A stretch of DNA of 64,000 nt. Source: Escherichia coli. GTDB lineage: Bacteria; Pseudomonadota; Gammaproteobacteria; Enterobacterales; Enterobacteriaceae. Of this stretch, positions 1-18,000 are shown one piece after another; within the stretch, counting starts at the first letter, position 1; every line of letters begins with the position of its first letter. A program made the position numbers. The stretch lies in the NCBI RefSeq assembly GCF_045037415.1, contig NZ_CP173440.1; one strand, given 5' to 3'.

Positions 1-3000
1 AATCCGTATCCAGAAAGTCAGAGGTGGCGTTCAGAGCTTCTTTAATGACCTGTCCATGGGTAACCGCCACTAACTTGCGCTCGTGATCGGCTATCTGTAA
101 TGCTTTGCCTCCATCAATGCTGTTGCCCTGGTCGTCTATCCCACTGGTTGTCTGACAGTCGTTATCGAGGACAGATACTGGCTCATCGGCATTAGCGGTG
201 CCGTGTTTTGCATTTTCCGCTAACGCGATAGCTGCCTGAACGGCGGGTATCATGGCAGTGGAATCTACGTTATCGGAAAATAAAATATCGGTTTCCATTT
301 CAACATTATCTTCGAGCCAGCGAAGAAGAATTTCTAAAGAATCCTGAATGTTCATATTTAGCTCCGGCCAAAAAAATAATAACAGGGGTGAAGACAGACA
401 TTCTAAATTATGAAGAATTCATGCCGCAGAACCAGGATACATTTTCAACTCAAAAAAGCAACCCTTTGCAATCAGGAAAAGTTAATTAATTGCAACCTGA
501 AAATTCACCACTTAAATAAACAACGGGGTAATATTATTGGAAAGAAACAGCAAGCCGGTTATTTTAAGGAGCTCTGCTATCATGCTTGTCATTATATTTT
601 AAGCCACTGTTTATGCGGCACTCACAATATGCATTCAAATATTCAGGCGTCAGATTGATTCCTGGAATTGATAAATGCATTTAAGCATTCCTGCATTCCC
701 CAGGATGCCTGCCACTTGCAAAGAAAAAGGTACTTTCTCTCAAGGTTCTCCATCTCTTGAAGATTTTCCGCTGAAAAATACGTCCATATATCATGCCAGC
801 ATACATCATAAGTAACCCCTGCGGGTGGTTGGTACGTCATGGCATCTGCACAGATAATGTCCACACGCTTATCATCTATAAAGGCCGGAGCGACAAGGTT
901 GATAACGTCTTGCTCTTTTTCAATAACGGTTACGTGGGTCACATCCTTTTTTTGCAAAATGACATGGAGAACCATCCCCAGTCCAAGCCCGTTGATAAGC
1001 ACGCGCCCCGTTGCCCGCTCAATAAATTCCATGCACGTGTTAATTTCCATCGGTGTATTGGACATGACGACTTCGCCATTATTTGAGAGACGACGATACT
1101 TACCAGGTGGAATGTATTCATTCTGATTGCCTGTTACGTCGGCCCTGAGAGAGAGCATATGCGCTTTCTCCTGAGAGATGGTGAATGTATCCAATGTCCA
1201 CGATCCGGATTTACCGTCCGTAACAGGGAGATCGTAAAAAAGAGTTCCCATTTTCAGTCCTGTAGTGTCGGAGCGTTACTTACCGGAAATTACCACAAAC
1301 CGGCTACTTTTGCAGGAATATCAGTCGCTGAAATGTGTCTTTTGCCGCCGCCACACAATGTAACGTTCAAGACACCCGCACATGATGGCCGTATCACGGG
1401 CTCCCTGAGCGGCCACGGCAGCTGACGTACGCCGTCCACCATTTCCTGTGAACTCGCGGGAGGATGCGTCCTGTAGCGTTGTCTTATCGCCATTCATCCG
1501 GTTCAGGAGCGCGTACAAATCGTCGAGGCTGAGGTGTTTCCAGCGAACGTCTGACAACCTGATTTCCTCCTGATTTGCTTTCTCATACCGTTCGTCACGG
1601 GTTAAAAGCTCACTTGGCCGGGCTTTCCTGAATGCTTGTGTTGCTTGTTCGACAGCACTTTCTTTACTGCTGGCAAAGAGATAATTTGCGCCGATGGAAT
1701 AACGGTATTTCCAGCGACTGCCGACCTTTCTGAGAAGGTCAAATTCAATCAACTCCTTTTCCGTTACCATGATTTAACCTTAATTAATGAATGATTTTGA
1801 CGATTCAAGAATAAGGTTTTCAATGTCACGTTTTGCTGCCTGACGTGCGCGATGTTTATCGGCACGCAGTACACTACTGTAGGCATTATTTTTACGGTAT
1901 CCCCTGGAACGACATAATCCACAGGTGCAACCAGTTACAGAATAAGACAAGCCATAAGGTTTCATACCTTTCCCTCTTTTTAAATATCCGCATCGCGATA
2001 AGTATATTAAATAAAACAGATAGTGCAAGTACCGTAATTAATATTAATCACACCCGGAGCGGCCGGTATAATTCATAATTTCTGAAGCATTATGTAGACC
2101 GGCCAGATAAAACCATCCTGAAAACAGTTTTCTTTTGATTGAAATGTTAGCGGTTAATTGGTCCATATTTTTTACTGGCAGGGAGGGAAACAGTCCAGCA
2201 TGCTCTTCGCTTTTACGAAGTCTATTCCGCCGGTGTGTGAATATGAAAGCGTGGTTCTCCATCTTCAGGGTCAGGCCAGTTCCGGGATTTGTTCACTTTC
2301 AGCTTTTCGATCATCGCCCGGGTAATCTGCTCGTCAGTGATACCGGCTCGGCGTTGGGCATCCCAGAGTAAAAATTGCATATCAGCCCATTCAGCATAGT
2401 TACCGGGCGCTTCTGCGGTTTCCAGCGCCTCGAGACTGAGATGCTTCAGCGGGCCAGTCGGGCCAACATCGCCGAATGTATCCTGAGACCACTCGGCGTG
2501 GTCACGGCGGATCTGGTCGCGTTCAGGAGATGGAGAGGCATAGAGATAGAGTGCTATATCAGAACCGTCTAATATGGGTTCAGGCCAGATTTCCCCAAAA
2601 CCATCTTCGCACTGAAGCTCAGTGCGGGATGTGTATACCACCGGCCTATTATTTTTCGCAAACCCGCGATGTTGCAGGAGTTCGCGGATAACGGCGGCAA
2701 TAACACCAGGCGCAGCCAAACGGCCAAACTCGCATTGATAATTTGGGTCGGGGTGACAAACCGATTCTTCCGCATACCAGAGCATGTTCGCCAGGTAATC
2801 ATCCTCAACTGGCGTAGAAGTTTCGGCCTGACGTCGTTTTTTTAACTCTCGGGCCATTATTGCTGCCTGATGGGGTGAAACCACTTCGCCAGCGATGATC
2901 CGGTCCAGTTCATCGACTGAAAAGGGATAATCATCCGGAAGAGTGTGGGTCTCTATATTGAGTAGGGCTTTGTTACTTTCGTGGCTCATAGTGTGCTCCA

Positions 3001-15000: not shown

Positions 15001-18000
15001 TGGTCGGTTATGCCTGTGTATACCATATTTCCTCCTCACCTACTGTTTTATACAAATGTTAATTATTCATCCATGACTGTTAATCACCTCCACTGCACCC
15101 TGAATCTGAAGTGTCCGAATAACTGCAATCTCCTCCATTAATAATGGTACTATCCGATTGTACGTTGCTTGTTGATGATAAATAAATGCTATGGATAATC
15201 AGTGAGGAATCATCACTATCACTCTGTTTATACCGGTGAGTCAGAGGTTTCCCCGCTATGGATAATGATTTTTCGTTTTTATTTATGTTGCCTGGAACAA
15301 CTGGAACTTTAGGGGTAATGAAAATATACCAGCTAAATGAAAACCACCAGGAGACCAACGCGTAATAAAACAACCACGGCCAGTCGCTTAGCCAATAACC
15401 ACCGTGATAGGCCAAAAGTAAGGTACAGGCCCCTCCCAACAACACCAGTTTCCGAAACAGCATAAACACCTCTTAGCAAAAGTAACTTTTGCGAGTGGGT
15501 TTTATCAGTGCAGCATCAATTCCTGAGCCGTAGATTGCCCGCGATGCCCAGCATCAATAACCGCCATCATCGGCTCAGCAATACCGACTACATCCTCGTC
15601 AATACCAGCACAACGACAGACCACATCAATGATCGCCAGAAGTTCATTAAGCGTCATCGGCTCATCAATCTTCACTTGCGTAATATCTTTCTTAATAATC
15701 GCATCACGGGCAGCACTATGCCGTTTCTGGTTATATAGCCAGACTGCATGGGTATTAGGTACCTGTTCACCGGGTGCGGAATTGTCAGTGTCTGAGTCTG
15801 CTACAAAAATGCCAACCTGGTTTTCAATCCCTGCGCACTGGCAGATTGAATTTGTCAGCTCCAGAAGCTGATTCAGTGTAGGAGAACAGAGCAACTCAAT
15901 TGATGATGTTGCACGGGCCTTAATAGCGCTTGCTACAGTGTCATGATGTTTTTTGCTGTAAAACGACACGGTCATGTTACTCATGGTGTTTTTCCTTCTA
16001 TGCTTTTCCGTAAATTGACTGAGTGGCCTGTATGTAGAGAGTGGAACAGGCCAGTACAGGTAATGCTTTACTGACCGGTAGTTTTGCCTTCCTGAGGTTC
16101 GTCTTTAGAAGACGCCCTTTTTTTCAGTCCAAAACGACCAGCAAAGTAGGCCAGCGCCAGGATGGCGTATACCTGCCAGAAAGGCCAGTCCGAAAGGAAA
16201 TAGCCCATGTGGTAGGAGAGGATCAACAGCCCGATGATGGGTACCAGTAATGCTTCCCGTTTAATGTTTTTCATTTCTACCTCAAAAGTGACTTTTATTG
16301 GTTAATTTGTGCCTGTGGCATAGTAATGACACTATTCTTTACTTCTCTCTCCTAGTCGCAGTTCACCCCCACTACAAAAAGGACCAGCCCAGTGGTGACA
16401 TTAAGGCTTCTGAGATCGGTCTGTTCTGTGGTTAAGGCCCTGAGATTGGCGTCAGTCGCATCCAAGGGGTATAGCGCCTGTGTCAACAGGAGAGCATTTT
16501 CATCCGAGCAGGTTAAACCGAGAGAAATAACGTATGACTGATAATTCAGCCGTACCCGCTTCTGTTCCTCGTCGCCCGCGCAGTTAAAATAATCGAGCGA
16601 GCGTGGCTCAAATGCCTCATCTGCAATGCTCTCCAGCACCCCATGTTTTTGAGGCATGATCTGCAATGGTAATACCGCTGCCGGGAACTGGTTACAACTG
16701 TGGCCTCCGCATTGTTCTTCGCCAAGGAACCAGTCCTGGGAAGGTGACTCCGGAACTATCTTCGTTGAAGCCAGCACCAAAGCAGGGTATTGATCGTCAT
16801 GACAGAACCAGGGGGCAAAATGCTTCTCCGAAATATCGGATATATTTCTTCCATACAGAATCGGTGGAATAGAGGATTTCATTACTCTGACCTGCCTTAA
16901 TTTTTGATTATCTTTCTAACCAGATATCTTCTGCTTGTCCGAAACATAATTCACTCTTCCATACATAACCACCATATACTTGAAGTGTATCCTGATATGC
17001 AGTGGAGATTCTGGCTTAAGACGATAAATTGTCTTTTGAATAAAATTTATTTTCCTGCATGCTGGATACGGCGAATTTTCTGTTTATCTGGTACTGAAAC
17101 TGGCGGCGTGCAGCCAGGGAATAGGATATGTATTCGTGCCCGCACTGCCTGCATTTACACATATAACCTGTACCTTTAGTTGCGAGTACTGATACATCTC
17201 CCCATCCGTTATGATCCAGACCCGCCCTTAAACGGTGCCAGTTTTTTTCATAGCAGGGCAAGCAGCGTAGGCTTCGATTTCTTCGGCAACTTCCACGTTC
17301 ACCCATATGCAGTTAAAACCCCTATTGTATTCGTGTCTGGCAGGAACAATTATACAGATTGAAACGTTGTGTAAAGCCCCTATTTAGGAATTCCGTCCAA
17401 AAAACATTATATATATCATAAACATCCAATAATTACGGAAAGAGCTACAGAGGGTGACTGAGGCGTGAGTGATTGATCATGTTGTTCTGGTCTCGATATG
17501 GCCCACCAGCGCAAATGTGTAGGGTGCCGGTGCAAGTATAAAAATGACTAGTGTGCCGACAACAGTGAGAAAAGCGGAAAAGTGACTTTTACGGGAGTAC
17601 AGCATGGTCATAAACAACAGATCATCCCCCCACAACACAGATATCTCTAAGAGGAATATGCTTCATATTTATGATGTAGTCTTATCATCTCTTTTTAAAC
17701 TTTATGCGACTCATTAGAGACATACGGTCAAAACCATAACTATGCCTTAGACGCTGCCCTCTTTTCCTCGTCCCCCCCACCCCCTCCCATCGGTCAAAAA
17801 ACAGCCGCAGTTATGTTGTCACACTGTTTATTTATGGGTCTTCCCCGATCATGGTGGGAAGACTCAGAACGCCATATTCAGTTTTCCATAGTGGAACATC
17901 ACTCCCAGCTTAAAGCGCTCCCGGTTCCTGTATCCTCTGGCTTTTATTCTCAGCAGTCTGATCTTGCTGTTCAGCGCCTCTGCATTACCATTCGAGACAC

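Follow-up and report, generated by a model that had tools for sequence, protein, structure and literature searches.

Several described systems come close to the locus considered here. The leading region of a conjugative plasmid has been defined as the side of the transfer origin (oriT) opposite the relaxase, with enrichment over approximately the initial 30 open reading frames (ORFs), which have the transferred strand as their template (Samuel et al. 2024, PMC11541004), and the leading islands of IncF and IncI plasmids are long runs of small co-oriented genes between replicon and oriT. The nin/ea regions of lambdoid phages are likewise made up of tightly packed small genes on one strand. In this work, we analyzed a window of 64,000 nucleotides from Escherichia coli (NCBI RefSeq assembly GCF_045037415.1, contig NZ_CP173440.1), of which positions 1-17306 carry an array of small co-oriented genes that a sequence-only reading had proposed to be an establishment or anti-defense island. 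This proposal is partly supported. Our best explanation, held with about as much doubt as confidence, is that the array forms the distal stretch of a leading arm of unusual length and encodes an establishment and host-takeover set, in which a plasmid-specific core is combined with a phage-derived mosaic under a promoter class of its own and a plasmid-wide regulator.

All 35 candidate ORFs in the interval 1-17306 (g01 to g35) are on the minus strand, as is every ORF there that has support for coding, and none of the plus-strand ORFs in this interval has any such support. In the record of an identical plasmid, 31 of the 35 are annotated by RefSeq, on one strand and nearly all as "hypothetical". 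The encoded proteins have a median length of 105 aa (range, 46 to 299), 78% of the interval is coding, four junctions are overlaps of 4-14 nt and six are gaps of 279-453 nt, and a recognizable Shine-Dalgarno sequence precedes most of the ORFs. Ratios of nonsynonymous to synonymous substitution rates (dN/dS) were determined against the diverged Klebsiella michiganensis plasmids CP048109 and CP095000, which show approximately 82% nucleotide identity to the array. Nearly all shared genes have values of 0.05-0.4, and g31 and g35, which were not called by RefSeq, are also under purifying selection, so that the array consists of genuine genes and is not a chance ORF pattern. The layout of approximately 35 co-oriented minus-strand small genes was thus read correctly, whereas the statement that their products are frequently acidic is unremarkable, since 17 of the 35 have an isoelectric point below 6 and the remainder are mostly basic. 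The block is real, but its limits are not those originally given: it continues past position 1 in related records and, at the other end, includes a gene remnant at 17525-17666. The full backbone array covers at least 21 kb with some 36 to 42 co-oriented small genes, and the interval 1-17306 is most of it.

The replicon is a 300-400 kb conjugative plasmid of the Klebsiella pneumoniae IncFIB(pNDM-Mar)/IncHI1B type, with a MOBH relaxase, MPF_F, and a MobI-type oriT. In high-risk Klebsiella clones, the principal hybrid plasmids that combine carbapenemase with virulence are those of the pNDM-MAR type. The interval 1-17306 was matched in 584 PLSDB plasmid records, of which 325 contain at least 80% of the query in one place and 234 are at least 99% identical. 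It is backbone sequence of this plasmid type, whose array fills the gap that separates the RepFIB replicon from the relaxosome operon. Rightward in the window, the array is followed by an ISL3 element, RepB, IS4321, a CRISPR-Cas locus, a group II intron, umuDC, a ParS/RES toxin-antitoxin pair, and hok/sok. Then come, on the minus strand, genes for a NERD nuclease, an S49 peptidase, DUF4400/TraJ, an SXT-type TraD, the MobH relaxase (209 bits versus a cutoff of 200), a 262-aa protein, and MobI (PF19456, 2e-21), and, on the plus strand, traF/H/G.

As judged from its relatives, the array is composed of a RepB-proximal, family-specific core (g25 to g35 plus the decayed g36) and a mosaic, phage-type distal layer that seems to be exchanged with Klebsiella phages. 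DUF4942, DUF5983, and a four-gene unit with a RelE-fold toxin-like protein belong to the core, and the SAM-methyltransferase-like, MazZ-like, Eaa-like, and Zn-ribbon proteins to the distal layer. Genes g25 to g35 keep strict synteny in relatives across approximately 18% nucleotide divergence. The RepB-distal part is mosaic: 12 of the 35 genes are absent from CP095000, where DUF262 or DUF551 genes are found instead, and in some related records a type I restriction-modification system is inserted within the array. More than half of the array genes are phage nin/ea-type accessory genes, a feature that had been missed; at least 19 of the 35 proteins match PHROGs families, with no match from g28 to g34. 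The g13 product shares 64% identity with EaA, a nin-region protein of Klebsiella phage 2 LV-2017, and those of g22 and g23 are 74% and 63% identical, respectively, to phage early-region proteins. The phage homologues of these three genes are located either in the nin region of a lambdoid Klebsiella phage or, flanked by two orphan DNA methyltransferases, in an early region. Phage records have no more than short segments in common with the array, at 78-96% nucleotide identity (Klebsiella phages). The families common to the array and the lambdoid nin/ea regions are Eaa-like g13, g22, g23, and DUF550, and in the phages such genes are intermixed with orphan methyltransferases. Unlike these regions, the array is located on a plasmid backbone and behind plasmid-specific promoters, and it is free of NinB/NinG/Q, replication, and structural genes.

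The repeated promoter cassettes and palindromes noted from the sequence were borne out by motif counts and by conservation. The promoter class has the form GGNTTGNNN-N16-TANCCTGG, often with AAATAGGGG ahead (GGG-TTGNNN-N16-TATCCT-GG). Exact copies are found at 432, 7566, 10994, and 13178 on the minus strand and at 36137-36169 on the plus strand, joined by near matches at 6614 and 3696 and by one variant (17349); each lies 45-120 nt upstream of the start codon that comes next, and on its strand. With its weak -10 element (TATCCT), this promoter class may depend on an activator. The palindrome AAAGTNACTTT is present in 31 exact copies in the window and in 42 copies with at most one mismatch, compared to 2.8 expected, and the pooled flanks extend it to a 13-bp site, RAAAGTNACTTTY. 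Eight copies are in the array region, seven of them intergenic and one in a decayed membrane-protein gene, and the sites are retained at corresponding positions in CP048109 and CP095000 despite diverged flanks. The palindrome also precedes transfer genes, sits in the oriT region, and clusters beside repB. It is centered at approximately -62 and -66 at two promoters, an activator-like position, and abuts the ribosome-binding site (RBS) at g31 and g33; a protein binding to it may act as an activator or as a repressor. A string search of the papers available to us found no report of the motif in a plasmid context.

The global repressor regulons of IncP (KorA/KorB) and IncW/IncN plasmids give zygotic induction. 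As in those regulons, a short palindrome stands here before many backbone units, including transfer genes, with further sites flanking the replicon, and is conserved while its flanks diverge. Unlike in KorA/KorB-type regulons, its placement ranges from approximately -65 to inside the 5' leaders, and a binder of either sign is postulated. Generic scans of the sequence remained at chance level (32 sigma-70 promoters versus 33 expected; 20 terminators versus 15). Other palindrome positions include 19306, 19477, 19594, 20161, 25074, 29475, 34919, 38429, 40361, 51440, 51542, 52786, 55365, 55382, 61227, and 63647. A cassette of approximately 220 bp, in which a promoter-like element is followed by the palindrome, occurs twice downstream of traG (61040-61260 and 63460-63680). 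In addition, a near-consensus sigma-70 promoter on the plus strand (13253-13280; CTGACA-16-TATAAT, 11/12) adjoins a palindrome and is directed, in antisense, into the spacer of g27 and g28; it might drive a small RNA and is not conserved in CP095000.

Links to the leading regions of other plasmids emerge from the protein families. DUF4942 is enriched in leading regions as families 24 and 76 (with 2171 and 551 members and median positions of 1 and 6, respectively), as is DUF5983 as family 72 (618 members; median position 2) (PMC11541004, Supplementary Table 1). Both are among the top-100 leading-enriched families in transferred-strand orientation, and UmuC and Hok-related families are also enriched (PMC11541004). 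The array encodes members of both DUF families, DUF4942 (g27) and DUF5983 (g26), and umuDC and hok are on the same arm. A DUF4942 homologue with 41% identity directly adjoins SSB, PsiB, PsiA, and a NikA-relaxase IncI-like oriT. The succession of replicon, co-oriented small genes, and oriT is the architecture of the F leading region. Seen from the array, the far side of oriT carries transfer genes and cargo, free of leading-type genes. The array further shares with the IncF/IncI leading islands a methyltransferase-like gene and a toxin-like unit. In ON081623, CP072810, CP048109, and CP095000 its genes point toward oriT, again as in the leading islands, and comparison with these four records suggests an ancestral layout of RepB, array toward oriT, hok, relaxosome operon, and oriT, in which the orientation would be that of a leading region. 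In the window, the segment formed by RepB and the array is inverted relative to the four records, probably by recombination between IS4321 copies. As for polarity, in the only measured case, that of a MobI-type oriT processed by an IncC MOBH1 relaxase, transfer "progresses downstream of mobI", as determined by mobilization of chromosomal markers (Rivard et al., PMC7449626). If this applies by analogy to the mobI side in the window, the array would be on the side transferred first.

A number of observations weigh against this assignment. The polarity is carried over from a distant homologue of MobI, and the leading-side placement of the array hinges on it. According to the rule that the leading region lies opposite the relaxase (PMC11541004), the array is on the wrong side of oriT, behind the relaxosome operon, and the relaxase is itself on the presumed leading side. 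In the window, the nearest end of the array is at least 34 kb and approximately 29 ORFs from oriT, which leaves it outside the zone of the first 30 or so ORFs; in the outgroup CP095000, it begins approximately 19 kb from oriT. Owing to the inversion, the array genes of the window are directed away from oriT, the transferred strand would be their sense strand, and the argument from orientation fails there; plasmids of the inverted type are nevertheless found in clinical isolates. Since copies of the palindrome also stand before transfer genes and flank repB, it marks a plasmid-wide regulon and is not specific to a leading region. No Frpo-like hairpin of single-stranded DNA was detected in the six long intergenic regions (z-scores from +1.6 to -3.2), the lowest value, for region 7566-7787, being due to short local hairpins only. 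A Pfam scan of the 35 proteins revealed none of the families ArdA, KlcA, PsiB, PsiA, SSB, or Acr, in agreement with the first reading, in which ArdA, KlcA, PsiB, and Ssb could not be recognized; the ParB-methylase of the leading islands is missing as well. The array proteins gave no matches to the F leading region, and their accession numbers are absent from the supplements of PMC11541004. Taken together, the conjugative replicon and the leading-region families speak for an establishment island, whereas the distance, the inversion, and the lack of a known anti-defense gene speak against it.

Three families of the array, DUF5983, DUF957, and DUF4942, are also known, on one strand and among small unknown genes, from the YeeW-L0009-L0010 module of CP4-57, CP4-44, the SRL PAI, and LEE-type islands. 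DUF957 is L0009 of the CP4/SRL-type islands, where the three are found together with KlcA-like, RadC, and CbtA genes, and the modules adjoin antirestriction-like, RadC, and toxin-antitoxin genes. The order differs in the array, with DUF4942, DUF5983, and then DUF957 approximately 25 genes later, and KlcA-like, RadC, and CbeA/CbtA genes were not found there by Pfam. A second, highly divergent DUF4942 gene was observed in CP095000 (82155-82949; L016 47156-47950), beside genes for phospholipase D, H-NS, and DUF2913; DUF2913 and phospholipase D neighbors also surround the DUF4942 gene of IncI-like contigs (L005-L007).

The abundance of phage families raises the alternative that the array is phage-derived "moron" cargo, namely, a sink of lambdoid nin/ea-type genes that are exchanged with Klebsiella prophages and benefit themselves or the host, with no role in plasmid entry. 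The PHROGs matches, the short stretches shared with Klebsiella phages, the nin or early-region location of the g13, g22, and g23 homologues, and the 12 genes absent from the related plasmid, with DUF262/DUF551 cassettes in their place, all favor such an origin, and the array would then be ordinary. We consider this unlikely, given that the RepB-proximal third is without phage relatives and syntenic, that plasmid-specific promoters and palindromes, the latter also present at transfer genes, precede the genes, and that DUF4942 and DUF5983 are plasmid leading-region families. The constant vicinity of the replicon permits a different reading. The array always adjoins RepB and points away from it, in the window as in the pNDM-MAR-type records and two outgroups, and both have been inverted as one; it might be a RepFIB-associated maintenance region, serving copy control, stability, addiction, or membrane functions, with a co-orientation that stems from co-direction with replication from the neighboring origin and not from transfer. 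A RelE-fold toxin-like unit would suit postsegregational killing, and the cumulative GC skew has its minimum at approximately 19-20 kb, beside repB, but the skew does not discriminate because it also tracks gene strand. The absence of partition, resolvase, and copy-control families among the array proteins (Pfam and NCBIfam) and a co-orientation that in the ancestral layout spans approximately 50 kb, through hok, umuDC, and CRISPR-Cas to the relaxosome operon, make a maintenance role quite improbable.

Finally, the array might be a defense or inter-element competition island that guards the pair of host and plasmid from phages and rival plasmids. The type IV-A3 CRISPR-Cas locus is near, within approximately 5 kb in the ancestral layout, although ISL3, RepB, and IS4321 intervene in the window. 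The arrays of relatives contain a DUF262 (GmrSD-like) gene or the inserted type I system mentioned above, a distant g30 relative adjoins an AAA_5 ATPase, and RelE-fold toxins are able to act in abortive infection. None of the 35 proteins, however, matched PADLOC at E values up to 0.01, most of the genes are much smaller than typical defense effectors, and DUF4942 and DUF5983 are tied to entry regions, so that we regard such an island as decidedly improbable.

If the array is the distal part of a leading arm, transfer would start at oriT upstream of mobI and proceed through mobI-traI-traD, hok/sok, umuDC, the CRISPR locus, and the array to RepB, and all array genes of the ancestral layout would have the transferred strand as their template. 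After second-strand synthesis, approximately eight units would be transcribed from the GGG-TTGNNN-N16-TATCCT-GG promoters and modulated by a putative plasmid factor binding to RAAAGTNACTTTY, which would result in a transient burst of approximately 35 small proteins in a naive recipient. The genes and their families, the g30 fold, the promoter and palindrome repeats with their conservation, the synteny, and the inversion are established, whereas the polarity of transfer (by analogy), early expression, and any establishment or anti-defense role are inferred, anti-defense activity being a hypothesis. A more far-reaching version, tentative and on balance doubtful, is that MobI/MobH megaplasmids transfer the relaxosome operon first and have a leading arm of 45-60 kb, whose distal half, the array, would be a dedicated entry regulon of some eight units, with a private promoter class and the plasmid-wide palindrome, transiently active in naive recipients and encoding several new anti-defense or host-takeover proteins, among them DUF4942 and DUF5983 as standalone proteins and a module with the RelE fold. 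The concept of the leading region is already known, and the array is a new, atypically placed case in a clinically important plasmid family. As an establishment arm, it would be a source of new counter-defense or host-manipulation proteins and a possible target against plasmid spread, and it would show that surveys built on the rule of the relaxase entering last may mis-assign the side in MobI-type elements. A leading arm of 45-60 kb would extend the leading-region principle to a class in which this rule mislabels the arms.

Four Pfam families were identified in the array, namely, PF04447 (g06), DUF5983 (g26), DUF4942 (g27), and DUF6012 (g28). The DUF550-like pyrophosphohydrolase recognized at 2222-2989 proved correct: the 255-aa g06 product contains at residues 160-255 a full-length C-terminal dATP/dGTP pyrophosphohydrolase domain (PF04447, formerly DUF550, MazZ-like; 1e-38, 132 bits versus a gathering cutoff of 23), it matched five PHROGs, and its best PDB match in a single-query search, a weak one, was MazZ (7ody). 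An S-adenosylmethionine (SAM)-methyltransferase-like protein had been proposed at 643-1251, in line with the match of the 202-aa g02 product to phrog_15480 "methyltransferase" (1e-35). This match, together with weak ones to aminopropyltransferases and rRNA methylases over their Rossmann region, supports a class-I SAM-binding fold. Matches to curated families were weak and spermidine-synthase-like; those of NCBIfam were aminopropyltransferase-like, and a single PDB query led to spermidine synthases. By inspection, no DNA-methyltransferase catalytic motif, either (D/N/S)PP(Y/F/W) or PCQ, was present in the 202 aa; g02 has the SAM fold without this hallmark of an orphan DNA methyltransferase. Small Zn-ribbon proteins were also confirmed in that five products (g04, g11, g12, g14, and g35) have paired CxxC motifs, but the proposed ribbon-helix-helix and winged helix-turn-helix proteins found no support in Pfam. 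A PDB sequence search with the 35 proteins joined by X linkers, which is less sensitive than single queries, gave no match at E values up to 1.

The block at 13515-15026 is AT-rich as described, with 37-40% GC compared to approximately 46% elsewhere. Its first product, the 193-aa basic protein of g30 (14445-15026, minus strand), had been ascribed a BrnT/DUF4258-like N-terminal motif, which holds for the fold and not for the family. The N-terminal domain has the RelE/ParE fold, with H9 and R17 invariant and R13 nearly invariant. The protein had no Pfam match at E values up to 0.1, only 2 of 49 relatives matched PF14076 (best, 6e-5), and a profile search of the PDB found no BrnT; membership in the BrnT family by sequence was rejected, and the similarity is retained at the level of the fold. 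In brnTA, the toxin gene is located before that of a small acidic partner. Here too, the toxin-like gene precedes a small acidic one, g29 (14135-14407, minus strand; 90 aa, isoelectric point of 4.3), a candidate partner that is conserved (dN/dS of 0.12-0.18). Unlike the proteins of BrnT/BrnA pairs, g30 has an extra C-terminal domain and reaches no Pfam toxin family, g29 matches no family and has no recognizable antitoxin or DNA-binding domain, and g31 and g28 also belong to the unit. The partners of distant g30 relatives are dissimilar to g29, and the neighborhoods of those relatives are short and uninformative. The four-gene unit g31-g30-g29-g28, composed of a membrane protein, the RelE-fold toxin-like protein, the acidic partner, and DUF6012, is probably an addiction or abortive module. 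A word-index search, which has limited sensitivity, gave only relatives of g28 that are at least 70% identical, in Klebsiella/Raoultella plasmids.

Along the array, whose genes and promoters are all on the minus strand, g01 (1-355) is a DUF957 gene truncated by the start of the window, with 118 codons of its 5' part present; it is annotated in the identical record and has a dN/dS of 0.21 with respect to one diverged plasmid (L004). An exact promoter cassette, GGGTTGCTT-N16-TATCCTGG, is upstream of it (432-464). Next to g02, g03 (1321-1770; 149 aa, dN/dS of 0.11) and g04 (1780-1965; 61 aa with CxCxxC, phrog_14783 at 1e-19) have an RBS. The 72-aa ORF g05 (2044-2262), which overlaps the end of g06, is doubtful, being without RBS, annotation, or family match. 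Downstream of a degenerate promoter cassette (3696-3728; two mismatches to the pattern), g07 (3053-3577) encodes a 174-aa acidic protein of two tandem repeats of approximately 76 aa and no family match; its internal 60-nt repeat, with copies 87% identical and 228 nt apart, belongs to the only duplication seen in a general search for long repeats in the array. The genes g08 (4031-4318, phrog_27273), g09 (4374-4514), g10 (4599-4871, phrog_26489), and g11 (4955-5161, with CPNC) were called by the NCBI Prokaryotic Genome Annotation Pipeline (PGAP), and the palindrome AAAGTAACTTT, conserved in the diverged relative L003, is located 93 nt upstream of g11 (5265-5275). The double-CxxC Zn ribbon g12 (5463-5660, phrog_4517 at 4e-39) and the 299-aa g13 with an Eaa-like C terminus (5657-6556, phrog_60 among others) are preceded by a promoter cassette (6614-6646) and a palindrome (6666-6676) centered approximately 62 nt upstream of the inferred start site. 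The acidic, CxxC-containing g14 (6894-7229, phrog_6757) and the basic, 71-aa g15 (7313-7528, phrog_19934) form a stretch (6894-7528) with a dN/dS of 0.22, behind a promoter cassette with AAATAGGGGCTT (7566-7598); a hairpin (7740-7755) and a palindrome (7777-7787) follow.

The genes g16 (7808-8194), g17 (8287-8610), g18 (8611-9255), and g19 (9252-9479) all have PHROGs matches, as do g22 (10142-10639) and g23 (10732-10950) of the group that also contains g20 (9466-9744) and g21 (9957-10145). The dN/dS values from g16 to g23 are 0.09-0.47, except for g22 (0.73) and g17 (0.91), both based on few changes. The 107-aa basic g17 product is labeled "AAC(3)-Ib/AAC(6')-Ib3, 100% identity" by PLSDB/RGI and matches only phrog_17934; the label is almost certainly an artefact of the resistance database. 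Upstream of g23, an exact promoter cassette, GGGTTGACT-N16-TATCCTGG (10994-11026), was also recovered in the sigma-70 scan. It is followed by g24 (11116-11367; 83 aa, phrog_1344 at 4e-36), with the palindrome AAAGTTACTTT 91 nt upstream (11469-11479), the acidic, 104-aa PGAP gene g25 (11488-11802; dN/dS of 0.16-0.21), g26 (11883-12203; DUF5983, YeeW-like, PF19419 at 2e-20), and g27 (12257-13126; DUF4942, YdiA/L0010-like), the last behind a promoter cassette (13178-13210) and a palindrome (13234-13244) centered approximately 66 nt upstream of the inferred start site and preserved in L003 and L004 between diverged flanks.

An intrinsic-terminator-like hairpin with an 8-bp stem, six GC pairs, and a T-run (13479-13501, minus strand) directly follows g28 (13515-14096; PF19475 at 4e-35). 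The unannotated g31 (15080-15463), with ATG 15463 as the better start and a dN/dS of 0.3, is a paralogue of g33, with 43% identity across a YHxGYxLSDWP segment. A copy of AAAGTAACTTT is located 15 nt upstream of its ATG, adjoining the Shine-Dalgarno sequence (15479-15489), and AAAGTGACTTT is 10 nt upstream of the g33 ATG (16285-16295). PGAP called g32 (15505-15984), for a 159-aa protein with an internal repeat, and g33 (16068-16274), for a small membrane protein, which have dN/dS values of 0.08-0.27. The acidic, 176-aa g34 (16352-16882; dN/dS of 0.21) and the basic, 96-aa g35 (17016-17306; two CxxC pairs, phrog_28753 at 3e-5, dN/dS of 0.31-0.36) complete the interval, and a variant promoter read from the sequence, AAATAGGGGC-TTTACA-15-TATAAT, is upstream of g35 (17349-17385). 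The remnant g36 (17525-17666, minus strand) corresponds to a frameshifted gene for a 111-aa membrane protein, detected by tblastn with the L003 gene in two frames and intact in relatives, within which a palindrome (17579-17589) is read as the codons K-S-H-F. Rfam and tRNA scans revealed no non-coding RNAs in the array.

Beyond the array, in the interval 17757-22370, the ISL3 (ISCfr12-like) element at approximately 17757-19153 separates it from RepB (20234-21385), and IS4321 abuts repB. Type IV-A3 CRISPR-Cas is a known feature of these plasmids; in the window, the locus spans 22929-29404, with a Csf4/DinG helicase at 24753-26660 and a CRISPR array (28463-29404) whose 16 repeats, each 29 nt long, have a spacing of 61 nt. 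The group II intron (RF02005 and an ltrA ORF; 29771-31588) is located just after the CRISPR array, and the sok antisense RNA with hok at 35297-35472. The 590 bp upstream of mobI are packed with inverted and direct repeats, and MobI together with this repeat-rich region places oriT at approximately 51.3-51.9 kb, which matches the position of the IncA/C oriT upstream of mobI (PMC5587640). The probable oriT (51329-51922) contains a 41-nt unit in triplicate, inverted repeats in nested arrangement (CATTAGTAC...AAAAGTACTAATG), and two of the palindromes.

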